From: a virus
Taxonomy: Duplodnaviria > Caudoviricetes
Strand: one strand, 5' to 3'
IMG/VR virus record: IMGVR_UViG_3300008110_000055
Coordinates: 1 to 59,685 of that record
Length of the DNA: 59,685 bases
Of the stretch, positions 12,394 through 45,246 are shown piece after piece (positions within the stretch are counted from its first letter, which is position 1; the number at the start of each line of letters is the position of its first letter). Both the position numbers and the translations under genes were made by a program. Under the pieces are notes generated by a model. The model ran no database searches. It saw nothing but the letters and a program-made list of their open reading frames with translations, and was not told the DNA's origin.

Positions 12394-12468
12394 CAGTCAG
12401 TGGTGTAATGGCAACATGCGGGACTCCAAATCCCTGCGATCTGAGTTCGAGTCTTAGCTGGCTGGCCA
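12394..12468 (+). tRNA. trnW: tRNA-Trp (CCA)
   Basis: Acceptor CAGTCAG/CTGGCTG, loop CT-CCA-AA, TTCGA T-loop, G73, encoded CCA. Confidence 0.93.
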
Positions 12469-30234: not shown

Positions 30235-30316
30235 GTGGGTGACTGAGTACCGAGTGTGTCAGCTCAAGCACCAGTTCCTTACCGAGTGCTTCGAGGCTAC
30301 GAGGAAGAAGGACTAA
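30053..30316 (+). CDS. rz1: Outer-membrane lipoprotein spanin (Rz1-like)
   Basis: Signal peptide MRTKLLTLILLAILATMSSG-C with lipobox Cys, Pro-rich mature part, overlaps Rz in another frame; implies a Gram-negative host. Confidence 0.75.
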   Translation: MRTKLLTLILLAILATMSSGCSMMPSPKPNVVCPAVVLEPCSPLNPLRNPSAGELKTRSNEWVTEYRVCQLKHQFLTECFEATRKKD

Positions 30317-30353
30317 AAGAAAAACCCCCGGCGATTAACCGGGGGTTCTTTTT
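30315..30353. terminator. Bidirectional intrinsic terminator between the convergent arms
   Basis: A-rich flank, AACCCCCGG/CCGGGGGTT stem, T-rich flank. Confidence 0.9.
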
Positions 30354-30358
30354 ACTAC

Positions 30359-30595
30359 TTAGTTGTGATCTCCGGGATCTCCGAAGTCTAACTCTAGTTG
30401 CTCGGGAGGCTCTTCGCCGTCGAACGGTTCGTCCCCGTTTAGTAGCTGTTCGATCTCGGTCAGCAGCATAATCAGCGTGTCTGTGATCTGGCTGCTACGC
30501 TCAGTGTCTAGCAGTACCGCCTTGTCTAGAGCACGCTCAAGTAGCAGCTTTGCTCTGTAGACGCTACGTGCTGGTAGGTCATCACCCCAATCCAT
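30359..30595 (-). CDS. Hypothetical protein
   Basis: GAGGAG RBS; last gene of the - arm. Confidence 0.6.
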   Translation of the reverse strand: MDWGDDLPARSVYRAKLLLERALDKAVLLDTERSSQITDTLIMLLTEIEQLLNGDEPFDGEEPPEQLELDFGDPGDHN

Positions 30596-30597
30596 AG

Positions 30598-30786
30598 TTA
30601 CGTTCTCCTCTTGCTTGGTACATAGTGCCCGCCAAGGGCCGAGCGAATGTGAGGAGTCACATCAGTCCCCGCAGGAAACGCACGCCTGATGATGTCTACT
30701 GCTTCTACTTTGTTGCCGGCTAGAAACTTGGACACTGCGTTAGCGTACAGTCGGTCGGTCATGATTCGTCGATCTTGGACTAGCAT
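30598..30786 (-). CDS. Hypothetical protein
   Basis: ORF packing. Confidence 0.5.
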   Translation of the reverse strand: MLVQDRRIMTDRLYANAVSKFLAGNKVEAVDIIRRAFPAGTDVTPHIRSALGGHYVPSKRRT

Positions 30787-30798
30787 CTAGGTACCTTG

Positions 30799-31626
30799 TT
30801 AGTTGTTGGCTAGGCTAAAGCGTTCTTTGGCACGCTTGTAGTTACGCTGGAGGAATCGTGCAAGAGACGTACCTTCGTACTCCTCACACAGGTAGTTCAT
30901 GTCTAGAGGCATCTCGCTAAAGTCACCGTCCCGTACGGCGTTGAGTACGACAACTCCTCGCCAATGGGAATTCGCCATACCTTTGTACGGCTCGTCATGG
31001 AGATAGCAAGAGCCCGCGACAATTCCTCTAATGACTTTCCCGGTGGCAAGCTGCTTAGATCCGATATCGTAGCCCTGAACGTGCCCTTGGACATAAGGAA
31101 CTCCAATTGCAGAGAGCTTGTGGTGTGCGGTGCCTCCGATCGGACGACCTGTATTTGGGTTGGAGAAATAGTGCGCGTACGTAATTCCGTCCACAACGAC
31201 CGCGCGAGGGCCTCCATTGAAATACTCGACGACCTCCCACCCAAGCGACCGGTCAACCAAGTTGTGAGGACCCATGAGCCCGTCAAGACGAGGATCGTTA
31301 GCAATAGTGCGATCCATTCGATGTTCATGATTACCTCGGAGAATGATCTTGCGCTTAGGTTTGAAGTCACCCATGGAGTGCTCTAGGATTCGCAGCGCTT
31401 CGTTGCCTGCCTCTACGTCCTTGATGTACCGGGCTCCTTCCTTATCGATCGAGCCAGCGGGAGACCAGCTACTGAGGGAATGAAAGTCCCAGTGATCTCC
31501 CATGTGGATAACTACGTCAGGCTTGTAGCGGGCGATCGCCTTGCCTACCCACTCGAAGTGTACCATGGGAGTACCCGGACTAACCTGCGTGTCAGGGATA
31601 ATTAGGTGACGCTTGGCTTTACTCAT
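30799..31626 (-). CDS. Calcineurin-like metallophosphoesterase
   Basis: IPDTQ, GDHWD, GNHE, AHYF, GH motifs. Confidence 0.85.
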   Translation of the reverse strand: MSKAKRHLIIPDTQVSPGTPMVHFEWVGKAIARYKPDVVIHMGDHWDFHSLSSWSPAGSIDKEGARYIKDVEAGNEALRILEHSMGDFKPKRKIILRGNHEHRMDRTIANDPRLDGLMGPHNLVDRSLGWEVVEYFNGGPRAVVVDGITYAHYFSNPNTGRPIGGTAHHKLSAIGVPYVQGHVQGYDIGSKQLATGKVIRGIVAGSCYLHDEPYKGMANSHWRGVVVLNAVRDGDFSEMPLDMNYLCEEYEGTSLARFLQRNYKRAKERFSLANN

Positions 31627-31828
31627 CGATAGTCTGTCCAGTGAACTGCCAGTACGGAACGAAGAAGAACCAGAAGGCTGTGTGGTACCACTTAGGTGGG
31701 ATCTGTACGTTTACGGCAAACGCCCCATCTTCGTCTGACATGTCTACGATCTGATAGGCGGTACGGTAGAACAGAAACGCACCCATTAGGTACAGCCATA
31801 GGATAACAAATGCTACGTACTCGTTCAT
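31619..31828 (-). CDS. Small membrane protein
   Basis: Two hydrophobic segments; coupled ORF. Confidence 0.55.
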   Translation of the reverse strand: MNEYVAFVILWLYLMGAFLFYRTAYQIVDMSDEDGAFAVNVQIPPKWYHTAFWFFFVPYWQFTGQTIDE

Positions 31829-32022
31829 TAGTTTACTGTCTCCTGCTTAGTCTCGCCGTACTTGGCGATGAAGTTAAGGACTAGCTGTCCCATGACCAGC
31901 GCTGCCGGTACGTTACCCTGCTCGTAGATCACACCGTCCGGGGTCTCGAATGCTGCCTCTACCTTGATGCCGTTGTCCGGCGCTTCAGTCAGGGTCAGCT
32001 TAAACTGCGATAGCTCAGCCAT
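31828..32022 (-). CDS. Hypothetical protein
   Basis: Coupled ORF. Confidence 0.55.
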   Translation of the reverse strand: MAELSQFKLTLTEAPDNGIKVEAAFETPDGVIYEQGNVPAALVMGQLVLNFIAKYGETKQETVN

Positions 32023-32434
32023 CCTTACGTTCCTCCATCCACTCGGGCGGGATCTCGCCGTGCTCCGATACGTGATACTTGATACCTACCTTACGGCACC
32101 AGTCAGAGTAGCGAGTCTTACTCTGCTTGGAGATCTTGTTATCGCGCATCAGCAGGATGCGGATGTCTAGATCTGGATGCTGTTCTACTACTAGCTGCAT
32201 CTTCTCACGAGCCTTGGCATCCAGCTTGCCCTTTGCTTCGACGTAGATCCCGTTGAACAGGATGAAGTCTGGCGTGTACCTACGGTTCTTAACAGGAACC
32301 TTGTACGGGATGCTGACTGACTCGTAGCTGAAGTCTACGTCATTACTCTGTAAGAATTTCCAGAGCTTGCGTTCGTAGCCTGATCTAGTATCGCTTAGTG
32401 TCTTAGCTTTAGGCGGTGCCGGTTTCTTAGGCAT
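32015..32434 (-). CDS. T7 endonuclease I-like Holliday junction resolvase
   Basis: RSGYE, YTPDF, YVEAKG, HPDLDIR, YSDWC motifs. Confidence 0.9.
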   Translation of the reverse strand: MPKKPAPPKAKTLSDTRSGYERKLWKFLQSNDVDFSYESVSIPYKVPVKNRRYTPDFILFNGIYVEAKGKLDAKAREKMQLVVEQHPDLDIRILLMRDNKISKQSKTRYSDWCRKVGIKYHVSEHGEIPPEWMEERKDG

Positions 32435-33137
32435 CCTTTAGAACCTTCCACGCTGTAGGCCAGAGCGCCTCTAGCTGCTTGTCAATCTCTGCGGCGTAGT
32501 GACGGATCTCTAGCTGTGCGCCTTCGTCGATGCGTAGCTTATACCAGTGGGCCCAGTTACGCAAGTTAAAGGTACAGTAGAAGCGTGTCACCATCGCTGT
32601 AGGCAGCACTCCCCGCGCCAGTTCCCGCGCAACTCCAAGCTCAAGCATGCTGTTGTAGCTCTGCAGGGCGTCCTGAATCCCCATCTTGTATTCTTCAGAC
32701 GCTTCTCGCTGCCTCTCGACTGCCCCTTCGCTCGACTGCTTGTTCTTAGCCGCTTGGGCACGGAACGTATCGGGGATGTAGTACGTGTCCGAAGGATCGC
32801 TGGTGTACCTCATAGAAATCTCATTAAACTGGCCAGTTCTATGCCGCATCCACTCTCGTGCTACGTACAACGGAGCTTCGATAAGGAACGAAGCACTTTG
32901 ATGTTCAAAAGGAGAGAAGTGCTTGTGCTCCGCTAGGAATCGCATCAGCTTTAGATCCTTCTCGGGATCGTCTCCAGTCTTGTCCTCTCGTCCGTGAGAT
33001 ACTCGGGCTGCGGATACCGGAAAAGTATCGGCGTCCTCGTACCACACAGTACCGAACTCGTCTATATTCTTTTGCATCGTGTAAGCTACTAGCTCGATAC
33101 GCATATCGGCTAGCGTCTTGAAGTTAATCCCAGCCAC
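32427..33137 (-). CDS. thyX: Flavin-dependent thymidylate synthase
   Basis: AARVS, HFSPFE, RHR(x7)SMRY, AQLEIR. Confidence 0.95.
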   Translation of the reverse strand: MAGINFKTLADMRIELVAYTMQKNIDEFGTVWYEDADTFPVSAARVSHGREDKTGDDPEKDLKLMRFLAEHKHFSPFEHQSASFLIEAPLYVAREWMRHRTGQFNEISMRYTSDPSDTYYIPDTFRAQAAKNKQSSEGAVERQREASEEYKMGIQDALQSYNSMLELGVARELARGVLPTAMVTRFYCTFNLRNWAHWYKLRIDEGAQLEIRHYAAEIDKQLEALWPTAWKVLKDA

Positions 33138-33465
33138 TGTTGTCCTCCGGCTTACCAGCCATCACGCGTTCCATGTTGTACAGCGCACGTTCAACATCCA
33201 CCGGATACCACCCTGCCGAGTCTCGCGTGTTAACGCCGAAGCAATCCATGAAGATCTTTTGCGTATCTGAGTTCAGGCTGTGAACTAGATCATCAAACGC
33301 TGCGTCAGTTACTCTTACTCCGTAGTCTGTTCGAACGATAGGCACTCCGTAGGCTTCGCACTTCGGGCAGCCTGAGAGGATTTGGTCTGGACCCAAGGGC
33401 ACGTGCTGTCGCGCTTCCTTAGAATCCACAGTAGCTGTGCCATTTCGCTTAGTTTGCTTTGCCAT
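33124..33465 (-). CDS. Hypothetical protein
   Basis: ORF overlapping the exonuclease end; start uncertain. Confidence 0.45.
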   Translation of the reverse strand: MAKQTKRNGTATVDSKEARQHVPLGPDQILSGCPKCEAYGVPIVRTDYGVRVTDAAFDDLVHSLNSDTQKIFMDCFGVNTRDSAGWYPVDVERALYNMERVMAGKPEDNSGWD

Positions 33466-34106
33466 TCGTCTTCTCCATAGTAGCGACGGTATTCGCGCTT
33501 ACACACCTCGAACCATCCGTCAGGGTTATCGCTCTCGTCTAGCAGCTTCTCTGCAGTCTTAGGACCAATCTTAGGTACACCCTGAATGTTGTCCGTAGGA
33601 TCACCAGTCAGTAGCTGAGTAAAGAACCATCGCTCTGCAGCAAGGCCGTCGATGAACTTGGCTTCGCCCTTGACGAAGTTGTAGTGCCAGCCCTTGATCA
33701 TCTTCATATCCTTGTCGATAGAGATGATACAGCTCTTGCCCTTCAGCTCGTACTGTCGAATGCCCTGCATATCGTCAGGCTCAATGCCATCGGTAGGGAT
33801 TGCCTTGTGGTACTTGATCAAGTACTCCCTAATCTCATTATAGTACTGAGGCTTGGGCGTGTCAAGTCTGTTACCCTTGTAGGGCTTGGTCTTCGCAATC
33901 TCGTTCCGGAAGTTACCACTGCCGCTGATGTACAGCTCCGCCTTACTGTCGAATGGAGCGAGCGCGTTGGCTACTACCATCTTGACAGAGTGCAGTACGT
34001 TCTCGATCGGCTCGTCTTTCTCGGCTGCGAAGCCTACGCGGTAGACAATCAGATCGCAATCAAGGAGCGGGGTCAGCTTCCGAATCTTGGTAAGTGAATC
34101 GCTCAC
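33315..34106 (-). CDS. 5'-3' exonuclease (T7 gp6/FEN-like)
   Basis: LLDCD, YKGNR, EPDD, DKD, GDPTDNIQGVPKIGPKTA. Confidence 0.9.
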   Translation of the reverse strand: MSDSLTKIRKLTPLLDCDLIVYRVGFAAEKDEPIENVLHSVKMVVANALAPFDSKAELYISGSGNFRNEIAKTKPYKGNRLDTPKPQYYNEIREYLIKYHKAIPTDGIEPDDMQGIRQYELKGKSCIISIDKDMKMIKGWHYNFVKGEAKFIDGLAAERWFFTQLLTGDPTDNIQGVPKIGPKTAEKLLDESDNPDGWFEVCKREYRRYYGEDEWQSKLSEMAQLLWILRKRDSTCPWVQTKSSQAARSAKPTECLSFEQTTE

Positions 34107-34401
34107 CTTTGTATTCTCCTTGAGGTGTATAGTAGATGCCTTCGATCAGCAGATCGTTAAGCTCGGCAGCTACGCGATGGTGTAGGACTAGCACGATCCT
34201 CTGTGAATCCAGATCAGTGTAGCCGCGTCTCAGAATATCTAGGGCTGTCTTGATCCTGCCGAATAGGCTTTTGTCCGGAGCTTCTACAGCGAAGGGCGTG
34301 TGGAATGTGATCGTACACCAGTCACCACTACGTCGTACTTCTTTTAGTTCGCTAGTACGTGAGGGGAACACAATAAGCGAAGGCTCATTCGAGTTCGTCA
34401 T
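34060..34401 (-). CDS. Hypothetical protein
   Basis: ORF packing, GGAGG upstream. Confidence 0.5.
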   Translation of the reverse strand: MTNSNEPSLIVFPSRTSELKEVRRSGDWCTITFHTPFAVEAPDKSLFGRIKTALDILRRGYTDLDSQRIVLVLHHRVAAELNDLLIEGIYYTPQGEYKGERFTYQDSEADPAP

Positions 34402-34567
34402 CTAGTCTATTCCTCCAGTTAGTATCTCGTTCGTATGGCTGGTGCAGTGGATGATCTCGCCGCCCCAGCTTCTCGTCTTTCTTCTTGTCCCGAAAACGGG
34501 AGGGCTTGGTGTATTCGTGCATAGCCTTGGCTACTGGATTACGAAGCTTGGGAGGCTTGATACTCAT
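34385..34567 (-). CDS. Small basic hypothetical protein
   Basis: RNPVAK...DKK motif common in phage small proteins. Confidence 0.5.
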   Translation of the reverse strand: MSIKPPKLRNPVAKAMHEYTKPSRFRDKKKDEKLGRRDHPLHQPYERDTNWRNRLDDELE

Positions 34568-34805
34568 ATCCTGTTTCCACTAGAGTCTCGTAGTTGCTAT
34601 CTTGCAGTACGCCATACACTACACCCGGCAGCTCTGACAGACGGATCGGGAACGTATCGATCTCTTGGTTATCAAGAGGACGCACCTTAACTACCAAGCG
34701 CTGTCCGTCGCAGTTACCCTCGAAGTAGAAGAGGGTACGTAGGTAGTTAGAGAATCTTACATCAGTAAAGCCGTACGTCTCCTTGAACTCCTTAACGGTT
34801 GTCAC
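34539..34805 (-). CDS. Hypothetical protein
   Basis: ORF packing, GGAGG upstream. Confidence 0.5.
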   Translation of the reverse strand: MTTVKEFKETYGFTDVRFSNYLRTLFYFEGNCDGQRLVVKVRPLDNQEIDTFPIRLSELPGVVYGVLQDSNYETLVETGYEYQASQAS

Positions 34806-35139
34806 CGCTACCTCCGATTACGTTACGAGTCATGCGAGAGGTAAGCTTGGCTACGTTGCCGTCAACAGCTTCCTGCATCATGATACCCTGATCCTTGAGG
34901 CACCGTGCTAGCTGCCACAGAATGTCACCGCCTTCCTTGACTAGATCAGCACGTAGCTTCTCGACGTGTACTACGTATTCTTCGGGTGGCATACCGCGAC
35001 CAGCTACGTCGCGCTTAAACTTAGCTAGCTTGCCTAGGAACTCTCCAACCTCTTCAGCCAGAGCTAGCTGTGGATAAGCCGGGTCAGTGTAGATAGCAGT
35101 AGTCTCAGTCCAGTCTTGGTATTCGTTAAACTCTTTCAT
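34792..35139 (-). CDS. MazG-like nucleotide pyrophosphohydrolase
   Basis: FNEYQ, LAEEVGE, KEGGDILW, N..KL..R...GSGDNR. Confidence 0.9.
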   Translation of the reverse strand: MKEFNEYQDWTETTAIYTDPAYPQLALAEEVGEFLGKLAKFKRDVAGRGMPPEEYVVHVEKLRADLVKEGGDILWQLARCLKDQGIMMQEAVDGNVAKLTSRMTRNVIGGSGDNR

Positions 35140-35311
35140 AGTGTAGTCCTAGTGAGTTAAGTACCTTGAGACCTTCTTCGTATTCCTCTAGAGTGTAGTA
35201 CGGCCCGCCACAACACTCTGGGTCACTGCACGAATTGTCGCTTAGATACAGCAGCATATCCTCGGTAGCATAACGCAGCTTATTCAGCTCGTCAGTTGTT
35301 AGCGTTCGCAT
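35126..35311 (-). CDS. Hypothetical protein
   Basis: CSDPECCGG motif; ORF packing. Confidence 0.5.
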   Translation of the reverse strand: MRTLTTDELNKLRYATEDMLLYLSDNSCSDPECCGGPYYTLEEYEEGLKVLNSLGLHYERV

Positions 35312-35771
35312 TCAGCACCTTATGCGGTAGATCGTTAAGATCTGGATAATTGCGAGTAAAGTGGAGGATCATGGTAGTGTTGCAGAGAATGTGACCGATG
35401 TGAGACAGACCTGATTCGGCGTCGTTTTCCTGCTCTTCTACCCACAGAGCGTGTGCGTGTCGCAGAGCGCAAGCTACAGGGATAGACCACGCCATGCCCT
35501 TAGCCCAGTTCCACGCGGCGTACTTACGCTTGCCATACTCGAACACGTGGGCGCAGTCTGCTACGTGCTCCCGCATCATCATGTTGTGCCAGTGTGTCAG
35601 AGCGGAATCATCGCCTGCAAACATTAGATCATGAAGAGCGTCAGCTAGATCTAGGTGAGTCCTGCCTTTTACATAAAGCAGCCTGGGCGGAATCAAGCTA
35701 AGGTCCGGCTTACCGTCGTTAAAGCGGGCACCACTCCCTCGCTCAGTACTATTAACGTTTCCAATTGGCAT
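35292..35771 (-). CDS. dATP/dGTP diphosphohydrolase-like (DUF5664-type) protein
   Basis: RFNDGKP.LSLIP, YG..KY..WNW.KG, RH, D.ESGL.H..H motifs. Confidence 0.8.
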   Translation of the reverse strand: MPIGNVNSTERGSGARFNDGKPDLSLIPPRLLYVKGRTHLDLADALHDLMFAGDDSALTHWHNMMMREHVADCAHVFEYGKRKYAAWNWAKGMAWSIPVACALRHAHALWVEEQENDAESGLSHIGHILCNTTMILHFTRNYPDLNDLPHKVLNANANN

Positions 35772-36192
35772 TTACTTTGTACTCCTCGATTCCTTGTTCA
35801 GTCGTGTAGACAACACGTACAATACCGGCAAGCTCAATCTCGCTAGCACACGCAGCACATGGCTTGCAGTTGGCCCACTTGCCATTCCGATCAAGCCGGG
35901 CAACGTAGATGGTGTGTAGCTCTGTACCAAGCCAGCGTTCTTCATTGCAAAAGTCCTCGGCGTCTAGGATAGCTGAAAGTTCTGCGTGAAGGCAAGGGTT
36001 CTCGATCTGCTTACCAGCACGTTTATTGGCGGCGTACTGACGCGGGTGGGTTCTTCGCTGGTTGTGTCCAGACCCGAGGTTGTTGCCGCGATTATCACTA
36101 ACTACTGCGCCAATCTTAACCCTGCCGAAAGTACTCTGAGTACTCTGATACAAGGCGTTAGCTATTCCCTTTCGGTCTCTGTCGTTAATCAT
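35752..36192 (-). CDS. Zn-dependent cytidine/dCMP deaminase-fold protein
   Basis: GAVV, HAE, KPCAAC. Confidence 0.85.
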   Translation of the reverse strand: MINDRDRKGIANALYQSTQSTFGRVKIGAVVSDNRGNNLGSGHNQRRTHPRQYAANKRAGKQIENPCLHAELSAILDAEDFCNEERWLGTELHTIYVARLDRNGKWANCKPCAACASEIELAGIVRVVYTTEQGIEEYKVNANWKR

Positions 36193-36246
36193 TGTAAGTC
36201 TCTAGTTATGGTGCCCCGTGTAACGCCGGGGCCACGCGCTTACAGC

Positions 36247-36411
36247 TTAGCGAATAGCCATCTCTCGATGGGTATCCCAGATACCGTAGTTAGGATTGCC
36301 GTCCTTGTGGGCACGCGCCTCGCCGCGAGTAGCGGCACGACGCATAGGCTTAGCTACGCCCGTCCTGGCAAAGGTGTTCTTTGAAAAGATGAAGTAACGA
36401 TGCTTACTCAT
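36247..36411 (-). CDS. Small basic hypothetical protein
   Basis: AAGGAG RBS before ATG 36411; followed by a GC hairpin at ~36211-36235. Confidence 0.55.
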   Translation of the reverse strand: MSKHRYFIFSKNTFARTGVAKPMRRAATRGEARAHKDGNPNYGIWDTHREMAIR

Positions 36412-36422
36412 ACTAAGTCTCC

Positions 36423-39400
36423 TTATAGGATATCGCATACCCCCGCCGTACAAGCGAGGTTCTGTACACCAGTAGTGGTATCTTCGCGCTCGAAGTCCGA
36501 GAGCTTAGACCAGTCAATGTTCTTCGGGAAAGCTTCGGCAGCCTTTACATAAGTAAGCTCGTCGATCTCTTGGTAGGGAGCTTGCTTGTAAGTACCGCCA
36601 TCGTAGGGAAGGAACGAGATACCGCTCAGGTCGTTGAAGTTCTTAAACACCCAAGCTCCTACGTCAACCCACTCGTGTTCCTCTACGTTGATCGTGACAC
36701 TGACCTGATGCTCTGCCCAGTGCTTGTTGTAGATCATCCACAGCTCTAGGTGATCCAGCGCCTTCACATCATCACGCGTCTTGCAGACGTCGGGAGCCTT
36801 GATCGGGAAGTAGAACACTGTAGTACTGTCAGGCTTCATCACGCAAGGCTCGTTAGGAATACCCATAGCCTTCATAAAGTCCGTCATCGGATCCTTGTTG
36901 TCACCACGCACAGAGCGTAGATAGAACTTAGAGTGACGAGGGTGGATACCAGAAGCGGCGTTGGTTAGCTGACTAACTGTTCCACTTGGCTTAATTGTTG
37001 ACGTAGCAGCGGAGCGATTGATGCCTAGGGCGTCAGCTAGCTCTGCGTTAACGACGTTGACGTGCGCCTTAAGCTGCTCAAGAAACTCAGCCAGCTTAGC
37101 CTTACCCATGTCACCGTTAGTCAGACTGTTGTCGTAGATGCCAGTAAGGCTTACTCCAAGTAGTCGCTCTTCCTCAGCGTTCTTTTTCCAGATCGGACGT
37201 ACGTATCGAAAGTTGGTGAATGTAGACTGGATCGTACCAAGGATCGCAGCGATGCTAGCCTTGCGCAGAAGAGAGCTTTCAGTATCATCAGCACGTACCA
37301 CTACCTCACTCAGTTATGTTAATCCCAATTCGCTAGATCGGGACGATAGGTTTTAAGTACCCACTGCGAGAACTTAACAAGTTCGTCAACGCTGGCTGCA
37401 CCTTTCATAGCGTTAGCACATTGACTTAGAACTTGGATGTTATCCTTAGTATAACCACGGTCATTATCAATTCTATCTAAGCTGGGGCTATTCTTATAAG
37501 CTCCCGATTTGCCTGAGTTAGCATTGATAGTAATGCCTGTAGCTGGACATACATCAGGAATCATAATGTCGTCTGCGGTCAGATCAAACTCAATGCCCTT
37601 GTATTTGGCACGCTGTTTAGCTCTCTGCCACATCTTCCATTGAGGAGTCATGCTTTTTACTCGACTGCAATTGCACTTCTTACAAAGTACCATCTTGCTA
37701 GTCTTCTCGAAGATAACTCCGCAGTTAGTACATTCTCTGTGCGTATCTGATTCCAGATAGCCCATGAGATTCTTCTTGAGTTCCATAGGTGTCCTCCTCT
37801 AGAGGTAAGGTTATGTAATCTTGTGACATTACATAGACACCAATAGTTCCCTAAAACCTATACCCTTATGTTTCCATAAGGCTCAGACTATATCATCACC
37901 CTCTTGCGAGGGGCTGGGCGCTTCCACTCCGCTTGGAGTGTACGAGCATAAGCTCTAGTCGTTGAACCTTCCCCGCCTAGCGGGGCTTGGCTGCTGATTG
38001 TCCTCGTCACTACACGTTAGGAGTTTCCAGCAATTCACCCAGTTTTACAACCTCTATGATTAAAGGTTACACAAGCCCGCAGAACGCAAGGCGATTTCCG
38101 CACCTTTATTGTTACTCGTCATTTAGACGGGGTTGGACGTTTGCGCCAACCTCCTCGCATTCCTGCGAGGAACAGACTATATCATCACCCTCAGACAGAG
38201 GGGCCAATCGTCCGAGCTTGTAGAGAAAAGACTTCTTAACGTAAGGAAGAATGATAGACTCAAACTTATCATTGTCCTTAGTACGAAGAGAAAGGTACCA
38301 GTATTTGTTTTGGCGATTAACGTTGAACTCAAGGCCCAGCTTCTCACGGATAGCCTGCTTAAGCAGCAGGTTATCTCCGTAGCTAAATCCTTTAGTGTTC
38401 AGCGTATACTTCGGAGAAGCGTTGCAACGCTTATCAACAAAACGAGATCCATCGGCCATGAAGATAATAGCAAGAGCTTCAGCATCAAGCATAGTCAGCA
38501 TGTGAGGATCGATCACCTTCTTACCATCAATATAAACTCTCTCGTGAATCTTGGTCAGCAGCGGATGCACGCGACTTTCTAGGCGCACTTGCGGAGCGCG
38601 ATTAAATCCGTCCGTGTTGTAGTCCTTACGCTGATAGATACGAGTACCGCAGTTTATAGCAGCGAGACTGTCTGCACACATAGTCACATAATCAAGATTA
38701 GCTTCGCGCATGTTCATAATGAACCTAGCGTTGTCGCACTTGCCAGTGATGTACAGCCCGCCGTCAAACGTACTAAAGTAATAGAGACGCTTGATGATAT
38801 CTTTCTTGTTGCTCATAGTCGTTACACCTCCCATATCGGGTTGGCACGGTATTGTCTGGTCTAGACTTCCACCGTTTTTAGATTGGTTATTCAGCGCAGT
38901 TTACACTGCGAGGCCGCTAGCATTTAACGGGTTAGTGCCTACGATCTTATCGGCGTCACGCTTACCGATACGCTCCGTCTTATCTCGGATACCCTTACGA
39001 TAGTAGATCCCGCGCTCGCCACTCTTACTGTTGTAAAGAGATGTCCACTCTTCTAGGAACTGACCGATGGTCGGTACGTCCTCGTACACGGCGGAGTTGT
39101 TAGCCAGAGCAAACTCCGGGTTACGCTCCCACCACATACCAGCCTTGGCGTCACGTACACGAGGAGAGCTTAGGTCAGACAGAGAGATCAGCGCCGAACG
39201 GCGTACGCCGCCAACCACTACAATCTCACCAATCTTGCAGACTAGGCCATGTACCTCTAGATCAGTGAGCTTGCGGCCAGCAGCACCACGGAAAGTACGA
39301 ATGGTATAATTGAATAGATCCACCAGCGGGTCAGGACCAGACGCGCGTCCTCCAAATACCTTAAGCCTCGCTCCCTTGGGCCGGACTTTGGATACATCGA

Positions 39401-39914
39401 AACGAGGCAGCTTGCCAGCATAGAGCATAGCAATAAGCTCGCGGTAAGCAGAGGCCCAGCCAATCCTGCTATCGCCAACCACGATAGTAGAGTCTGTTTC
39501 ATGGAAAGACTCTGCTACGTCAGGTAGCTGATTTACGTAGCGGGTTTCGCAGGAGAACCCTACCCCAGTACCACACGTCAGGATGTACAGGATCTCGTCG
39601 AATGCTCGGGGATGATCCATCGCCACGAACGAGCAGTTGTACAGCGCCATCTCGTCCCGCTTCGCCGCTTCGCCTGCTGTCATCAGTGCTCTCATCGAGG
39701 GCATGACTTCTAGGTTCAGGATCGCTGAGCGAATCTCGGACTTGTCGATACTGAGCTGCGGCACTTTGTCCAGCACCGGAGCTACGATGTTCGTCATGTA
39801 GCGGTCCACTGTCTCCGGCCACGTCTCTCGTCGGTTCTGTTCCGGAAGCCAACGGCTGTACCGGCTTAGGGCAATGAATGTCTGGAAGTCTGTTGGTAGG
39901 TAATTCGTCGTCAT
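36423..39914 (-). CDS. nrdJ: Class II (adenosylcobalamin-dependent) ribonucleotide reductase, three exons: 39914-38927, 38103-38063, 37310-36423 (638 aa)
   Basis: YNCSF, GTGVG, VRRSA, restored GTNPCAEIALRSAGLCNLSEV, TIKPSGT, C-terminal CTAGVC; exons sum to 1917 nt, in frame. Confidence 0.93.
37311..38062 (-). mobile_element. Group I intron 2 of nrdJ (752 nt)
   Basis: P1 AACCUU|UA..UAGAGGUU with U.G at the splice site; AAUUGCUGGAAA, AAUCAGCAG, CAACGACUA and GAUAUAGUC core elements; terminal G at 37311. Confidence 0.92.
37319..37786 (-). CDS. Intron-encoded HNH-like homing endonuclease with Zn-finger N-terminus
   Basis: CTNC/CKKC; SPSLDRIDNDRGYTKDNIQV....N.MK; lies 3' of the intron core. Confidence 0.85.
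   Translation of the reverse strand: MELKKNLMGYLESDTHRECTNCGVIFEKTSKMVLCKKCNCSRVKSMTPQWKMWQRAKQRAKYKGIEFDLTADDIMIPDVCPATGITINANSGKSGAYKNSPSLDRIDNDRGYTKDNIQVLSQCANAMKGAASVDELVKFSQWVLKTYRPDLANWD
38104..38926 (-). mobile_element. Group I intron 1 of nrdJ (823 nt)
   Basis: P1 CCGU|UA..UAGCGG with U.G; AACGGUGGAA, AAUACCGUG, AACGACUA and GAUAUAGUC core elements; terminal G at 38104. Confidence 0.92.
38112..38816 (-). CDS. Intron-encoded double-motif LAGLIDADG homing endonuclease
   Basis: YYFSTFDGG and AIIFMADGS motifs, LNT.GFS, F.YKL; GGAGG RBS; ATG overlaps the GACUA element. Confidence 0.88.
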   Translation of the reverse strand: MSNKKDIIKRLYYFSTFDGGLYITGKCDNARFIMNMREANLDYVTMCADSLAAINCGTRIYQRKDYNTDGFNRAPQVRLESRVHPLLTKIHERVYIDGKKVIDPHMLTMLDAEALAIIFMADGSRFVDKRCNASPKYTLNTKGFSYGDNLLLKQAIREKLGLEFNVNRQNKYWYLSLRTKDNDKFESIILPYVKKSFLYKLGRLAPLSEGDDIVCSSQECEEVGANVQPRLNDE

Positions 39915-40040
39915 CAGTTTCCTTTAGTTCTAGTAGGTAGGCTAGACGTCGCAGCTCAATGGCCACGACTCTAGGAGAAAGGGACGGGTTGCGCGTGGCA
40001 ACCCTCCCTAGTTGGTTCCTAAGCTCGTCCAGTTCGTAGC

Positions 40041-40583
40041 TTAGTCCCACTTCTCTCCGTCCTCAAGACCGGCAGTATCAGGATTGCCGTCTTCTTCTGA
40101 AGCCGTGCTCTTCTCTACCTTACCGACCGAGTAGTTGTAGAACTTCTCGGTAGTCTCGTCTAGGAAAGCCGAGAGGATAGCAAACTTCTTGTCCGCGTTT
40201 GCAGTCTTCGGGAACTCAATAGCGCCGTTAGCCACGGCGAGCTGGATAAACGTGAGAGCAGAGTTTCGCGCTGCCTGCTTAGAGATGACGTCCTGTCGCT
40301 TGTCATCGTTGCCGCCGCCGTAACCGCCACGGCTAGGGGGTGCAGTTCGAGTAGGTGTCTCTGCTGGAACATCCTCTCCAGTAACGCGCTCGACCTTACT
40401 ACCTTTGGTCAGGTTCCAGTACTTGCCATTAGCAGTGACGTCGAACTTAACGTAGTCACCTTCGCTAGCCTTCGGCGGATACTTGCCGATCGAGTAGTAC
40501 TCGTTGTTAACTTGGATCGAGTACATGGTGCCGTACTGAGTGTCACGTGACGAGATCTTCTGAATCTTACCCTTAACGATCAT
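40041..40583 (-). CDS. Single-stranded DNA-binding protein (putative)
   Basis: OB-fold-like N-terminus, Gly linker, acidic tail ending in an aromatic residue; next to the polymerase. Confidence 0.65.
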   Translation of the reverse strand: MIVKGKIQKISSRDTQYGTMYSIQVNNEYYSIGKYPPKASEGDYVKFDVTANGKYWNLTKGSKVERVTGEDVPAETPTRTAPPSRGGYGGGNDDKRQDVISKQAARNSALTFIQLAVANGAIEFPKTANADKKFAILSAFLDETTEKFYNYSVGKVEKSTASEEDGNPDTAGLEDGEKWD

Positions 40584-40587
40584 ATGA

Positions 40588-42495
40588 TTACTTTTCCTTT
40601 CTTGTAGTCGTACCGTCTGGCAGTACGTTATAGATAATCTCGGTAGGCGATTCGCCCCAGTTCCGAGATAGTTTGATTCCGCAACCCAGCGGGGCTACGA
40701 AGTCGAAGTTGTATCCCTTACTCAGGTAAGGAAACACAGCATCAGTGAAGCACCACTTACTCAGCTCTTCATACAGCTCCTCACTACCTTTAGGTACCAG
40801 CGAAATGATACTGTCGTGGATCGTGTTGACAATCACGATACCGGTGTCCTCGATCAAGTGCCAGAAGTGTACCAGCACCAGCGGGATAATCTCTCCGGTC
40901 GCAAGTCCTTGGACTGGAAAGTTATGGACTTCCGTGCCCACATTAACGTGACCAGTCCTAGTACTAACCTTAACCTCTGGCCAGTAAAACTTAAGGCCGT
41001 AAGGTGTAGTCAGCTCCTTGTTGTTGATGACGCTGAGGATCCATCCTCGTTGCGTGTTGGAGATACCTTTGTACTTCTGCTTGAAGAACTCGGCGTATGC
41101 CTTCTGTGCTTCGGTCTTACCCATGCCACCATACAGCGGGGCGAAGGTAGAAGCCTTGGCCTGCTGGCGAGTGGTAGGCTCGCCTGCTTCGGTAAGAACT
41201 TGCGCCGTAACCGAGTGAACATCTGTACCCGAAATGATCTCGTCGATTGCGATGCGGTCGTTACCAAGTGCAGCAGCTACGCGGAACTCAAGCTGGGCTG
41301 CGTCAGCTTCTCCCACGTAGTAGTCTTCATCTCCCGACCAGAACAACCGCTTGTACTGGCGAGGAAGATTCTGACCCTGTACTCCCTTCGGCTTCTTCTG
41401 TCCGGTAAAGAGTAGTGGCCTACCACTAGAGCTAAGACGTCCTGTCTTAGTCACACCCTGATTGAATACGGCGTAGAACTTGCATCCGTACTCTCTCACC
41501 ACACCCACAAAGAACTCTAGGTTCTTGGTAAGCAGCGCTGATAGCTTGTTAAACTCCTTGTACTTTGTAAGGAACGTAGTTTGCACTTCGTCCTTAGCTA
41601 CCAGCTTACCTAACGTGGCCGAGTCCGTGGCCAGCACACCCTTAGCAGTAACGATTGGCAGGCGTGTACGAGGATCGGTAGGGGGAATGAACCCTAACTT
41701 CTCGTACAGAAGAGCAGCTAGCTGCTTGCCGCTGTTGAAGTTAACACCGTCACCTGCAATCTCACGAAGCGAAGCAGAGGCATCCTGATACTGCTTGATC
41801 GTAGTCTCGTACTCGTCCATCACAGCACGAGGATCAAGCGTCAGACCATTGAACTCAATGTCAGCTAGTACAGAGCAAGTGAGGTTACGTACATGGACTA
41901 GTGGCAGTAGGTTCGATTCGTCAAGCAATTGAACCTGCTTGAGGAAGATCTCCAGCGTAGCCTTGACGTCGTGCTCGCAGTACTCCAGTAGCCACGACTT
42001 AGGGATCCACTCTACAGGATACCCGCTAGAGATCAGCAGCGAGATACGGTCTAGCTTCTTTGTTACATTGTAAGACTTGGCTAGCGCTGACAGGCTGCGC
42101 GGCTTGCGGAGATTACCATCGAGTACCCACTGGCCTAGCATGGTGCAGTAAGCCGGACGACTACGGAGATCGAAGCCGCACCGCTTGAGCCACTGCAACT
42201 CGAACTTGGCGTTGTGTGCTACGAAGAACTCGCAGAACTTGAGATCCTCGATAAGCTCCTGCATCTCGTACTCGTTACCGAACTTGTACTTCTTGGTAAC
42301 AGTCAGGTCGTCACGATCTACGATCGTCCAGCAGGCGAGGATTAGTTCGTTGTCTTTATTGAGTGCTGATCCCTTGTCGTGTGAGGTAGTCTCGAAGTCT
42401 AGAACTGCGAAGCGTCCAGAGCGAACATCAGAGTACCACTTGCTCCACTCTGGATCCCGCACGTGCGGGGGTAGCTTATCGTAATAGGGATGCAC
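40588..42495 (-). CDS. DNA polymerase, family A, with 3'-5' exonuclease
   Basis: LDFET, AHNAKFE, YCEHD; TGRLSS; D.AQLEFR; R..AK..TF.PLYG; IHDS. Confidence 0.95.
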   Translation of the reverse strand: MHPYYDKLPPHVRDPEWSKWYSDVRSGRFAVLDFETTSHDKGSALNKDNELILACWTIVDRDDLTVTKKYKFGNEYEMQELIEDLKFCEFFVAHNAKFELQWLKRCGFDLRSRPAYCTMLGQWVLDGNLRKPRSLSALAKSYNVTKKLDRISLLISSGYPVEWIPKSWLLEYCEHDVKATLEIFLKQVQLLDESNLLPLVHVRNLTCSVLADIEFNGLTLDPRAVMDEYETTIKQYQDASASLREIAGDGVNFNSGKQLAALLYEKLGFIPPTDPRTRLPIVTAKGVLATDSATLGKLVAKDEVQTTFLTKYKEFNKLSALLTKNLEFFVGVVREYGCKFYAVFNQGVTKTGRLSSSGRPLLFTGQKKPKGVQGQNLPRQYKRLFWSGDEDYYVGEADAAQLEFRVAAALGNDRIAIDEIISGTDVHSVTAQVLTEAGEPTTRQQAKASTFAPLYGGMGKTEAQKAYAEFFKQKYKGISNTQRGWILSVINNKELTTPYGLKFYWPEVKVSTRTGHVNVGTEVHNFPVQGLATGEIIPLVLVHFWHLIEDTGIVIVNTIHDSIISLVPKGSEELYEELSKWCFTDAVFPYLSKGYNFDFVAPLGCGIKLSRNWGESPTEIIYNVLPDGTTTRKEK

Positions 42496-42507
42496 CGTAA
42501 GTATTCC

Positions 42508-42759
42508 TTAGAAGTCTTGGCGACGAGGACGTCCGCGTGGCCGTGGCTTGATCTTGAAGATAGTCTGAGAATCTTCTAGCTCTTTGATCGAACCATCTTT
42601 GTTGTACTTAACTTTGGTGATAGGGCCAGTAATCACACGGCTATCTGGATTCTCTTCTGGATAGACACCCAGAACAGGGAAGTCAGGATCATCATCGAAG
42701 CCCACAATCCACATCACATCTTTGTCATCGCGGGACTTTACATTTGTAAGACGCGGCAT
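42508..42759 (-). CDS. Hypothetical protein with AT-hook-like C-terminus
   Basis: RPRGRPRR; GAGGAG RBS. Confidence 0.6.
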   Translation of the reverse strand: MPRLTNVKSRDDKDVMWIVGFDDDPDFPVLGVYPEENPDSRVITGPITKVKYNKDGSIKELEDSQTIFKIKPRPRGRPRRQDF

Positions 42760-42781
42760 TAGTAATTCTCCTCGGTTAAAG

Positions 42782-42858
42782 TGGCGACCCCGGAGGGACT
42801 CGAACCCCCGACCACATTCTTAGAAGGAACGTGCTCTATCCAACTGAGCTACGGGGTC
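42782..42858 (-). tRNA. trnR: tRNA-Arg (UCU)
   Basis: GACCCCG/CGGGGTC acceptor, TAGCTCAGTTGGATAGAGC D-arm, CT-TCT-AA loop, GTTCGA, encoded CCA. Confidence 0.95.
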
Positions 42859-42867
42859 ATATAATCA

Positions 42868-42896
42868 ATACTACGGGACGTTCTCTTCGTAGTCAA
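42868..42896 (-). promoter_or_regulatory. Sigma70-like promoter for tRNA-Arg
   Basis: TTGACT-17 bp-TAGTAT, about 10 nt upstream of the tRNA. Confidence 0.65.
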
Positions 42897-43017
42897 TAGA
42901 GATGCCGAACTTGTTTAGCTCTCGCTCAGCATGAACTAACTCGTCTACATCGTTAGCGTGGAAGTACGCCCGCAGCAGACTGTCTAGGTACTCTAGCTGT
43001 TTAGTCGTCAGGTGCAT
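42871..43017 (-). CDS. 48-aa hypothetical protein (not in the ORF track)
   Basis: MHLTTKQLEYLDSLLRAYF...; abuts the upstream stop. Confidence 0.5.
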   Translation of the reverse strand: MHLTTKQLEYLDSLLRAYFHANDVDELVHAERELNKFGISIDYEENVP

Positions 43018-43185
43018 TTAGTTAGGGCTCCAGAACTGATCGCAAACATCGTCCTCGCAGAAGTCGTCGTAGTAATCCTGATCGTACTTACCGCTATCCT
43101 CGTCCTCCTCTTCTTCCTCGCCTTCAACAAAGTCGTCAGTCAGATCGGCAAGGTACTCGTCGTAACCCGGCAGTCGATTAGTCAT
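43018..43185 (-). CDS. 55-aa hyper-acidic protein
   Basis: 22 D/E versus 2 K/R; GGAGG upstream of ATG 43185. Confidence 0.6.
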   Translation of the reverse strand: MTNRLPGYDEYLADLTDDFVEGEEEEEDEDSGKYDQDYYDDFCEDDVCDQFWSPN

Positions 43186-43363
43186 ACTTAAACTTAACCT
43201 CCTTGGCAGACCAGCTAGCAATTACGTACCCGGCAAACTCCGCTTCCTTCTTCGTCTTAAAGTGTAAGGTTCGATTGATATCGCGGATACCGAGAGGACG
43301 TAGCGCCCACATATCGTAGTACCCCATGTCGCTAAAGATCTCGAACGTCATTTCGTTTTTCAT
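43178..43363 (-). CDS. Hypothetical protein
   Basis: ORF packing. Confidence 0.5.
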   Translation of the reverse strand: MKNEMTFEIFSDMGYYDMWALRPLGIRDINRTLHFKTKKEAEFAGYVIASWSAKEVKFKYD

Positions 43364-43737
43364 TTAGAGTTCCTAGCGGCGTCGATGGCGGCGATTGCCA
43401 TTCGTCGCCAGAATTCTTGTCGCATGTATCTCTCTGCATCGTAGCTATCGCCCGCTGTGAGGCTTAGGTACGTGCGGTACAAGGCCTCCATCATGTCGCT
43501 GACCTTTACGGAATTTGCTGCCAGCGCAGCGTCGCGCTCGGCCTCAAGCTCAAACAGCCTGCGGCCCCTGATAACCACCTGTTCCGCAAGCATCACCACT
43601 CGCTTTTCAAGCTCCGCGATGCGGGCGTCGGCTTCGTCCTTGGCGTACCACTTCCCGCCCGGGTCGGCGGTCATTTCGTGGCGCTCATGCCCTCCCTGCA
43701 CGTAGCTTTCAAGTGCATACCTCGTCAGTAAGGTCAT
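43360..43737 (-). CDS. Hypothetical protein (Ead-like accessory)
   Basis: G.W....A.ARIAELE...AIDAAR pattern; ATGA overlaps. Confidence 0.55.
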   Translation of the reverse strand: MTLLTRYALESYVQGGHERHEMTADPGGKWYAKDEADARIAELEKRVVMLAEQVVIRGRRLFELEAERDAALAANSVKVSDMMEALYRTYLSLTAGDSYDAERYMRQEFWRRMAIAAIDAARNSK

Positions 43738-44651
43738 TCGTCGTCTGCTTTCACTTTGTCGTGTCGTTGTCCCTTGAGGCGCGGCTCGCGCAGCAGGCCA
43801 TCCTCGGTGATGCCGAGTGCCTCGACCTCGAAGATTTTACCCACGGGGTTGTCGCCGTTTGGCAGTTTCATGAAGCCGTCCCACCAAGCGGACCTCTGCG
43901 GGAATGTACCGCCGCTGGCCTTGATGGTCTTGCCCTTGTAGCTGAGCACCAGCTTTCCGGCCATGCCTGCCATCTTGCCCTTGCCTTCTTCCACGCCGAC
44001 GCAGCGCAGGTCCAGCGAGATCACAGGCTTCACCTTGATGAGGCTACCGTCCGTGACGTAGCCCTTGTACCAGTGATGCTCGGGATGTCGGAGGATCAGG
44101 CCGTCGTATCCGCCTCGCTGCACCCACTTGTTCGCGCCTTCTTGCGGATCAGCGTAAGTGCCCGGGGGATAGTACGCCACAAGCTCCACAGGTGAGCCTG
44201 CGAAGTTGCCGTGGTCGAGCCGTTGCTGGAGGTGGGCGAAGCGGGTGCGGTAGGGAACATCGTGAAGCCCCATGGCGAATGATCCAGAGGGGACGATGTC
44301 ATATACGACCATGCGAAGCCCGGGAGCGGGATCGTGCTGTCGCACCATACCGCTGATAGTTGGGAACGGGACACCGTCGATCCACGCTTCTCCGAAGACA
44401 ACCCAGCCGGGGCCGTAGATGCGCTGCAAGGCGCTGCCGATGTGGGCGCAGGACTTGATCTCCTCCCCGGTTGCGGAGAGAACCTCGAAGCCGCCATCGC
44501 TCCACAGTCGCACAGCAAGGGCGCACCCGTCGTACTTGCGCTGGGCAATGTGGGTGGAGATGAGGGCGAGAAGATCACCACCGACCTCCTTCTGAAATGC
44601 GGCGGACGTTGCGTCCAACTCGCGGGGTTTCTGAATGATGTAGTCAGCCAT
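43734..44651 (-). CDS. lig: ATP-dependent DNA ligase
   Basis: KYDG motif I, FGEAW, YDI, GYDGLILR, KVKP, C-terminal LREPR. Confidence 0.9.
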   Translation of the reverse strand: MADYIIQKPRELDATSAAFQKEVGGDLLALISTHIAQRKYDGCALAVRLWSDGGFEVLSATGEEIKSCAHIGSALQRIYGPGWVVFGEAWIDGVPFPTISGMVRQHDPAPGLRMVVYDIVPSGSFAMGLHDVPYRTRFAHLQQRLDHGNFAGSPVELVAYYPPGTYADPQEGANKWVQRGGYDGLILRHPEHHWYKGYVTDGSLIKVKPVISLDLRCVGVEEGKGKMAGMAGKLVLSYKGKTIKASGGTFPQRSAWWDGFMKLPNGDNPVGKIFEVEALGITEDGLLREPRLKGQRHDKVKADDE

Positions 44652-44754
44652 AGATGATGTAGCCTAGCAGGAAGCCAAGGAGGAAGAAGATTAGCATGCA
44701 CCATGCCAACACCTGCACTGCGCCTAGCATTAGGTCGCGGATGATCTCAGGCAT
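44644..44754 (-). CDS. 36-aa membrane peptide (not in the ORF track)
   Basis: MPEIIRDLMLGAVQVLAWCMLIFFLLGFLLGYIIYG; overlaps both neighbours. Confidence 0.45.
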   Translation of the reverse strand: MPEIIRDLMLGAVQVLAWCMLIFFLLGFLLGYIIYG

Positions 44755-44871
44755 ACTTCACCGCCGTCCGCTGCAGGCCGCTCTCGATGATAGCGACTGC
44801 CTTCTCGAACGTGGTCTCGGCGTCGAGCTTCTCGGCGAGGTAGGCGTAGAGGTCCGCCTTGTACTCGTCGC

Positions 44872-45246
44872 TCACTGCTTGCCTCCAATGGCCGCGAGGG
44901 CGTCGCGTGCTTTTGAGATTCGCTCACTGCGCACGCCCCAGCCGGAAGATTCTGGGTGCGTCCGATTGACGTACTCAAGGGAGTCGATGCAGTCCTCCAA
45001 CGCCTCCACCACCCCGGCCTGCGCGTTCAGCGCGGCGGCGATGCGCTGGTTCCATTTCCGCACGGCGTCCTCGCGGGTCTTACCAGCAATCTCCATCACC
45101 GACGACGGCTGTCCTTCCTCGCGCACGCACCAATGACGAACGCGGGCGCTGATGACTTGCAGGCGCAGCCCAGTCCAGTGCGTCGATTCATTGACTCGTG
45201 TTTCGCCAGCACCGCAGAACGGGCACGGCTCAAGATGCTCACTCAC
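44872..45246 (-). CDS. Lar-like restriction alleviation protein
   Basis: LEPCPFCG ... T.E.A...WN.R; GTGA overlap start. Confidence 0.6.
   Translation of the reverse strand: MSEHLEPCPFCGAGETRVNESTHWTGLRLQVISARVRHWCVREEGQPSSVMEIAGKTREDAVRKWNQRIAAALNAQAGVVEALEDCIDSLEYVNRTHPESSGWGVRSERISKARDALAAIGGKQ

Follow-up and report, generated by a model that had tools for sequence, protein, structure and literature searches.

Tandem group I introns flank micro-exons in orf142 of Staphylococcus phage Twort (23 nucleotides [nt]) and in the 23S rRNA gene of Coxiella burnetii (34 nt), and exon skipping is reported in both (PMC10136302). Here we describe a related arrangement in nrdJ, the class II ribonucleotide reductase (RNR) gene on IMG/VR record IMGVR_UViG_3300008110_000055, a 59,685-base virus record (CheckV completeness of about 48%) that was analyzed whole and is called the window below. 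Two mobile group I introns, unrelated to each other and with insertion sites 41 bp apart, have probably invaded the nrdJ gene of this uncultured freshwater phage. The gene encodes a B12-dependent, RTPR-like enzyme and would produce a normal NrdJ protein after the predicted splicing. Like introns 2 and 3 of Twort orf142, which belong to subgroup IA2, these are tandem group I introns in a phage protein gene that enclose a micro-exon and must both be removed (PMC10136302). The Twort introns are highly similar to each other, and exon skipping is seen between them (PMC10136302); unlike them, the introns of the window belong to different families, use different guides, and each carry an endonuclease gene of their own, and the 41-nt exon between them bears catalytic residues. 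The C. burnetii locus likewise has two group I introns, there of different subgroups, around a micro-exon (PMC10136302) but is a bacterial rRNA gene, with no reading frame at stake.

Among the phage genes for nucleotide metabolism, those for RNR are described as the most frequent hosts of group I introns (PMC3653736), and RNRdb has curated more than 100 group I introns from RNR genes (PMC2795772). The nrdE genes of phages Twort (two group I introns, one with an HNH endonuclease), SPbeta (an intron and an intein), and Brochothrix phage A9 (PMC3653736) resemble the window in that more than one intron or intein has entered the gene of an RNR catalytic subunit close to conserved functional residues; unlike the nrdJ of the window, they encode class I enzymes. 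Only two split nrdJ genes, those of phiYS40 and P60, appear in the portion of that survey devoted to such genes, and neither is ascribed there to a group I intron (PMC3653736). In both class I and class II RNRs, the position N-terminal to the thiyl-radical Cys is the commonest intein insertion point (PMC2677866). Inteins at this site include the NrdJ-1 and NrdA split inteins (PMC2677866), and intron 1 of the window sits one base downstream of it. RNR inteins splice as protein and intron 1 would splice as RNA; unrelated elements have converged on the same few bases. A search of open-access main text turned up no paper that reports a group I intron in nrdJ. Tandem introns around micro-exons and introns or inteins at RNR active sites are already published; what the window contains is a two-intron, two-endonuclease allele at a known RNR homing hot spot.

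Two long minus-strand open reading frames (ORFs) with class II RNR signatures (337 and 292 amino acids [aa]) lie within 39914-36423, and the 1616 bases between them contain further ORFs of 234 and 155 aa. The 337-aa ORF, which covers exon 1, matches Pfam RNR-II_ins_dom above cut-off (1.5e-9), and the 292-aa ORF, which covers exon 3, gives a weak match to the RNR barrel domain Ribonuc_red_lgC (20.2 bits, below cut-off). The features of the locus, in order of transcription, are as follows.

38927-39914, minus strand: nrdJ exon 1, codons 1-329 and the first base of the Cys-330 codon; includes the equivalent of RTPR C119.
38104-38926, minus strand: intron 1, group I, 823 nt; P1 CCGU/GCGG with U.G at the splice site; terminal G.
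38112-38816, minus strand: putative LAGLIDADG homing endonuclease ORF in intron 1, 234 aa, two motifs; AUG in the P7 5' strand; reads through P3', P8, P7', and P9.
38063-38103, minus strand: micro-exon, 41 nt; final two bases of the Cys codon followed by AEIALRSAGLCNL; equivalents of RTPR C408, E410, and C419.
37311-38062, minus strand: intron 2, group I, 752 nt; P1 AACCUU/GAGGUU with U.G; in-frame UAA at its start; terminal G.
37864-38062, minus strand: ribozyme core of intron 2, P1 to P9, 199 nt; the Rfam match ends at 37864.
37319-37786, minus strand: HNH-like endonuclease ORF in intron 2, 155 aa, downstream of P9; N-terminal CxxC...CxxC, C-terminal SLDRID...N...N.
37324-37342, minus strand: terminal hairpin of intron 2 just before the 3' splice site, overlapped by the last codons of the HNH-like ORF.
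36423-37310, minus strand: nrdJ exon 3, from SEVVVRADD... through the C-terminal CxxxxC tail.

The positions of the exon boundaries are supported by both homology and the rules of group I splicing. A tblastn search with the exon-1 ORF found NrdJ in 1197 phage records, the best being Lentibacter phage ICBM2 and the Roseobacter CRP phages at about 60% identity, and among the matches listed the NrdJ homology ends at residues 329-331 (...GTNP), apart from one that runs to 336. Joining 39914-38927, 38103-38063, and 37310-36423 by script yielded 988 + 41 + 888 = 1917 nt, encoding 638 aa with one terminal stop. Exon 1 ends in ...AACCCGT, intron 1 divides the Cys codon as T|GT, the micro-exon encodes (C)AEIALRSAGLCNL, and the predicted spliced joints read AACCCGT|GTGCGGAA and AACCTT|AGTGAG. 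The Cys after NP is obtained solely with these junctions, and the same junctions satisfy the group I rules of a U before the 5' site and a G at the 3' end. The spliced protein is collinear at both junctions with the uninterrupted NrdJ of ICBM2 and Sinorhizobium phage phiM6, its loop GTNPCAEIALRSAGLCNLSEVVVRA aligning gap-free with their counterpart GTNPCSEIILRPYQFCNL(T/S)EVVVR; the NrdJ of Roseobacter phage CRP-235 has a 14-residue insertion within the catalytic loop. Omission of the 41-nt exon in silico caused a frameshift with immediate stops. An earlier note on this DNA had described an nrdJ split twice 41 nt apart, a micro-exon at 38103-38063 preceded by a Cys codon cut as T|GT, an intact spliced frame of 638 aa, and a frameshift upon exon skipping. 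Our coordinates, lengths, and junctions match that description to the base, the splice model reproduced the micro-exon and its split codon, and the in silico joins, aligned to phage NrdJ homologs, bore out both the intact frame and the frameshift, which establishes the anatomy of the locus.

The identity of the enzyme was assessed through a close relative (locus L006), drawn from 57 viral-contig loci encoding NrdJ relatives. In RTPR, C119, C408, E410, C419, C731, and C736 have catalytic roles. The L006 protein, which is 97% identical to the spliced protein of the window, matched Lactobacillus leichmannii RTPR (1L1L) at 5.9e-50, and in the alignment made via L006 the NPC Cys corresponds to C408, the Glu to E410, and the CNL Cys to C419, while the exon-1 Cys corresponds to C119 and the C-terminal Cys pair to C731 and C736. 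All five cysteines and the Glu are present in the spliced protein, as expected of an RTPR-type NrdJ, and the alignment confirms the earlier note in placing active-site residues (the C408, E410, and C419 equivalents) on the micro-exon.

The L006 nrdJ is also an intron-less allele: it forms a single 1914-nt frame with neither intron, its two exon blocks share 89.7% and 89.3% DNA identity with those of the window, and its catalytic loop is identical over GTNPCAEIALRSAGLCNLSEVVVRADDTES. The L006 contig is collinear with window positions 30000-45000 (15 kb) at 85-87% DNA identity, except for two short stretches that align poorly. Relative to this contig, the window has a single kilobase-scale insertion, the intron pair, and G001 is about 0.5 kb longer at one other place. 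Because only 22 of the 191 codons that differ between the two genes alter the residue, the exons are under purifying selection. A megablast search of the gene against the phage collection returned no match.

Intron 2 is readily recognized as a group I intron. It matched Rfam RF00028 at 96.4 bits (gathering threshold, 50) over model positions 1-253, with the match at 38098-37864. Its core was aligned with those of nine relatives (alignment A2); L082, whose junctions are inconsistent with the frame, was excluded, as were L163 and L164, which were obtained later. Across this alignment, 94.4% of cells were paired and 38 of 58 pairs showed compensatory changes, a level reached in none of 500 shuffles, while controls with the partners slid by 1-3 columns were 33-43% paired. 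The U.G pair occurs in 10 of 10 sequences, the intron ends in G, P7 carries one compensatory change, and the core extends from P3 to P9, including the P3/P7 pseudoknot. Introns of subgroup IA2 have two additional hairpins, P7.1 and P7.2, inserted between P7 and the P3 3' strand. Two hairpins lie at this position in intron 2, with compensatory changes in 4 of 4 and 4 of 6 pairs, and the intron may accordingly be IA2-like. An in-frame UAA opens the intron in 9 of the 10 aligned sequences. Inspection by eye, with no count from a tool, found a terminal hairpin with differing stems in 10 intron-2 sequences including the window (L082 excluded), and only a 4-bp offset candidate for P10. A contig of sequencing run X13 fuses 37864 directly to 37310; it comes from a diverged relative whose intron, about 199 nt long, has no ORF, and it aligns to the window over 33 nt and about 39 nt. 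Run X19 also has loose ends at 37310/37864.

Intron 1 falls under the Rfam cut-off, and its group I fold is supported instead by covariation. In an alignment of the window with six distinct relatives (L064, L066, L067, and L070 were omitted as equal to others in the stretches compared), P1, P2, P3, P4, P6, P7, and P9.1 are paired in 7 of 7 sequences, compensatory double changes occur in 29 of 59 pairs, and all seven sequences have both the U.G pair at the 5' splice site and the terminal G. P1 itself covaries, from CCGU/GCGG in the window to CCUU/GAGG in L063. The low pair counts of P9, P9.2, and the P8 tip reflect misalignment by MAFFT, since covariation in these elements was seen by eye in another alignment. 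P1 and P2 of intron 1 appear in the minimum free energy fold; such folds of the P1 regions of both introns give the expected hairpins, no better than shuffles do (z of -0.8 and -1.0). We consider that this comparative evidence, drawn from aligned sequences, settles the assignment of intron 1 to group I, and the two alignments together demonstrate that the RNA folds are conserved family-wide. The earlier note had given both introns a U.G-containing P1, core elements, and a terminal G. These were found in each, and the Rfam group I score backs intron 2 and not intron 1.

The ORF of intron 1 is interwoven with its ribozyme. In all seven intron-1 sequences the AUG of the LAGLIDADG ORF lies within the P7 5' strand and the Shine-Dalgarno sequence within P6. 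The ORF occupies the position of P7.1/P7.2 in this intron. The ORFs of the six relatives stop 56-101 nt short of the 3' splice site, in five cases at a TAA in the P3 3' strand. The P3 of the window, CCAAUC/GAUUGG, retains pairing and has lost this stop, so that the ORF extends 33 codons through the core and ends 8 nt before the 3' splice site. The two introns also share an identical 20-nt direct repeat (38192-38173 and 37903-37884, about 290 nt apart) that extends from the P8 3' strand to P7'. Recombination between its copies would remove the micro-exon.

Both intron ORFs are intact. The intron-1 ORF matches Pfam LAGLIDADG_2 at 4.4e-22 (79.2 bits; cut-off, 25), and its motifs, ...FSTFDGG... 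and ...IIFMADG..., are kept with their conserved Asp in 7 of 7 members, so it is a putative LAGLIDADG homing endonuclease. The intron-2 ORF matches PHROG families phrog_3322 ("endonuclease"; 2.9e-33), phrog_1035 ("endonuclease VII"), and phrog_3118 ("HNH endonuclease"), with values ranging to 1.7e-13. It matched no Pfam family, including HNH at E values up to 10, and a profile search of the Protein Data Bank returned nothing relevant. Among 11 family members, 29 columns are invariant, including the four N-terminal cysteines, D104, R105, Y112, N116, and N125. An AlphaFold2 model of the ORF (predicted local distance difference test score, 76) has two strands followed by a helix at residues 101-129. 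Foldseek ranked the HNH restriction enzyme PacI first, as a weak match (E value of 9.3e-3, probability of 0.98, TM score of 0.42), and McrA and Hpy99I were much weaker. The earlier note had called the two enzymes LAGLIDADG and HNH-like. Pfam confirms the former; the latter draws support from PHROG and the weak PacI fold and none from Pfam HNH or from an invariant His. Judged by these profiles and the structural model, HNH-like is a fair label for a candidate HNH enzyme.

Each of the two families is faithful to its own site in nrdJ. All 10 relatives of the intron-1 LAGLIDADG ORF found in viral contigs lie inside RNR genes, and nine of them occupy NP|C; the genes concerned share 24-57% identity with that of the window. 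A relative of the LAGLIDADG intron, 53% identical (L072:2892-3718), lies about 26 codons upstream of NP|C, at GEP|YG, a site that likewise ends in CCGU; it looks like an ectopic relocation of the LAGLIDADG intron family inside one gene. Relatives of the HNH-like ORF were found at 142 loci, of which 80 were kept. Nine of these lie inside nrdJ at or beside CNL, with L038 providing a tenth intron copy; two are downstream of a distant RNR gene, eight are about 1.1-2.0 kb upstream of the nrdJ start and apparently free-standing, and the other 61 have no nrdJ within the fetched flanks. The upstream relatives (L085, L087, L091, L092, L094, L105, L106, and L084) are 42-58% identical to the ORF of the window. 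At those loci that extend far enough, nrdJ is uninterrupted across the CNL site, and the upstream ORFs may be free-standing endonucleases aimed at the same gene.

The intron-2 family occupies two registers, CNL| (the window, L038, L073, L075, and L077) and C|NL, 6 nt upstream (L074, L076, L079, L080, L083, and phages RHph_N3_13 and CRP-7), and the P1 guide follows the exon in each, with GAGGUU for CNL| and GCAGAA for C|NL. In a tree of the endonucleases, L038 (CNL|) and CRP-7 (C|NL) are sisters with support of 100/98, indicating that the register has changed more than once; the tree is otherwise mostly unresolved, with 3 of 13 inner branches well supported. Rhizobium phage RHph_N3_13 (L163; MN988507.1, 36498-39129) and Roseobacter phage CRP-7 (L164; MK613349.1, 35552-38170) have nrdJ split at C|NL by an ORF 65% and 52% identical, respectively, to that of intron 2, with a matching P1 guide; they differ from the window in having a single intron 6 nt further upstream. 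Their junctions are consistent with a C|NL group I intron that bears the HNH-like endonuclease. In GenBank, both carry two partial RNR genes with an intervening ORF annotated as "Srd postulated decoy of host sigma factor" or "hypothetical." Judging from these matches, the paired "partial RNR" and "Srd decoy" annotations most likely represent one nrdJ with an unannotated intron and its endonuclease.

Other elements occupy the same stretch of nrdJ. Inteins are present at NP|C in L039, L044, L045, and L075. Pfam Intein_splicing, run on three of these, scored above cut-off in L075 and L039 and below it in L044 (31.8 versus 35.8 bits). In L075 (1851-3487), an HNH-type intein at NP|C (Intein_splicing, 1.9e-13; HNH_3, 4.2e-11) is combined with an intron-2-type group I intron after CNL, and elements of protein and RNA splicing thereby bracket the same 14 residues, CAEAILRSSGLCNL. 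The nrdJ of L077 (815-5486) is apparently broken three times, at residues ~93-108 (the region equivalent to C119), at CNL by an HNH-type intron, and at ~454-510. A 176-nt ORF-less insert lies in the same Cys codon (T|GC) in L017 (6965-7140), with a 7-bp P1-like pairing that includes U.G and with GACUA/UAGUC; it had no Rfam match at E values up to 1. The 10 LAGLIDADG-intron loci are all empty at the CNL site, and the 10 HNH-intron loci all lack an intron at NP|C; among the loci examined, only the window has the two-intron allele. Two further candidates from a pattern scan of viral contigs (intron-1 3' end to intron-2 P3/P4) were rejected, neither being nrdJ. One (L161:1-4700) packs at least three Rfam group I matches into less than 5 kb, together with two or more LAGLIDADG-like ORFs identified by tblastn and further motif-bearing ORFs seen by eye; the other (L162:3462-3968) has two sub-threshold group I matches 55 nt apart.

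In the model that we propose for this doubly invaded nrdJ, each intron would fold into its own ribozyme, cleave after the U of its P1 U.G pair, and ligate after its terminal G, and the resulting mRNA would encode the normal 638-aa NrdJ. During mixed infection, each endonuclease would cut intron-less alleles like that of L006, and repair from the two-intron allele would usually copy both introns together, since their sites are only 41 bp apart. The neighboring targets, co-homing, and attack on intron-less competitors that the earlier note envisaged are plausible on these sequence comparisons because an intron-less close relative exists and because each family keeps to its own fixed site.

Several observations weigh against this interpretation. 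Intron 1 matched RF00028 at just 27.4 bits (gathering threshold, 50; E values of 1.7e-4 in a 1.85-kb scan and 0.0055 over the whole window), in a match that spans the whole model and must bridge the ORF of about 700 nt. Its P1 has just 4 exon base pairs (6 counting two intron bases), no convincing P10 was found for it, and its ORF, lacking the usual stop of the family, reads through the ribozyme core and could interfere with folding. In intron 2, the spacer after P9, ahead of the endonuclease ORF, holds a promoter-like TTGACA-17-TATAAT sequence in three of nine relatives and looser versions in two more (by eye), and this sequence is degenerate in the window. No invariant His is among the 29 invariant columns of the HNH-like family. 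None of the 21 listed runs with the stretch is an RNA run. Finally, the comparison with L006 revealed no footprint of co-conversion: 13 of 21 codons near the junctions differ, 1435 of 5000 shuffles reach that number, and another part of the gene is denser in differences.

A broader proposal, which we put forward tentatively and consider doubtful as yet, is that the 42-bp NPCxE...CNL stretch is a shared landing pad for four or more unrelated selfish elements, which would compete and stack there. The elements seen there are the LAGLIDADG group I intron, the HNH-type group I intron, inteins of LAGLIDADG and HNH type, and the 176-nt insert. The window would then represent the stacked state, either endonuclease could carry both introns into an intron-less genome, and the free-standing HNH-like relatives beside uninterrupted nrdJ genes would mark how the endonuclease came into its intron.

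Alternatively, the gene may be decaying, with one or both introns splicing poorly or not at all, the phage depending on the RNR of its host, and the intact exons reflecting a recent invasion. The weak Rfam score, short P1, and stop-less ORF of intron 1, the degenerate endonuclease promoter of intron 2, and the lack of an RNA run among those listed are what such decay might look like. We nevertheless think it improbable, given that the core helices of both introns are all intact, with deviations compensated (the change that removed the stop left P3 paired as CCAAUC/GAUUGG), and that the exons have neither stop nor frameshift, diverge from L006 mostly at synonymous positions (22 of 191), and encode all five catalytic cysteines of RTPR. 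Furthermore, the same sequence, with 0 differences, occurs in contigs of at least three studies.

Splicing could also be real and yet neither autonomous nor constitutive, either because the LAGLIDADG protein is needed as a maturase or because the two ribozymes interact, leading to partial skipping of the 41-nt exon and to true gating of the enzyme. Skipping has been reported between the tandem group I introns of Twort orf142 and of Coxiella 23S rRNA (PMC10136302), the two introns of the window share the identical P8-P7' stretch, and translation of the LAGLIDADG ORF would compete with folding because P7 contains its start codon and P6 its Shine-Dalgarno sequence. Against this, the P1 guides (GCGG and GAGGUU) and the peripheral helices differ, differences of a kind that suppressed skipping in engineered pairs (PMC10136302), and the exon-skipped product would be frameshifted and useless; we therefore regard this explanation as unlikely. 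The suggestion in the earlier note that two splicing events gate deoxynucleoside triphosphate synthesis holds in the trivial sense that both introns must go, and we saw no sign of regulation.

That the window is an assembly chimera of two single-intron alleles is conceivable for a metagenome assembly when single-intron alleles of both kinds occur in other contigs, but it is exceedingly improbable because runs X12 (37956-38553), X13 (37482-38210), and X17 (37910-38245), from three studies, each contain a single contig that passes from the 3' end of intron 1 through the micro-exon into the 5' part of intron 2 and shows 0 differences from the window. These studies comprise freshwater as well as samples labeled "fungus metagenome," and some of the bridging runs may still be related to the source sample. 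Runs X12, X13, X17, and X19 were also considered as sources of intron-less or single-intron alleles (word shares, 0.41-0.78) and proved to be fragmented low-depth assemblies, in which the only joint is that of the X13 contig with the diverged ORF-less intron.

Elsewhere in the window, two genes downstream of nrdJ (35292-36192) have Pfam matches: one resembles a dCMP deaminase gene (PF00383, 5.2e-14), and the other encodes the N-terminal domain of dATP/dGTP diphosphohydrolase (PF18909, 5.1e-22). The contig, which is partial, has no PurA/PurZ-like gene. A family A DNA polymerase gene lies upstream of nrdJ (42495-40588). tRNA genes are found at 42785-42858 (minus strand) and 12394-12465 (plus strand), with Rfam scores of 64.6 and 48.4 bits, and the L006 contig has two tRNA genes upstream of nrdJ as well.

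In sum, the two-intron nrdJ offers a natural test bed for asking how homing endonucleases select sites among the best-conserved codons of an essential enzyme, whether neighboring mobile introns aid or hinder each other's spread, and whether tandem ribozymes skip a micro-exon. Alleles for comparison are at hand, namely the intron-less allele of L006, the single-intron alleles, and the intein-plus-intron allele of L075. More generally, surveys of viral diversity that are based on RNR should expect split nrdJ records.

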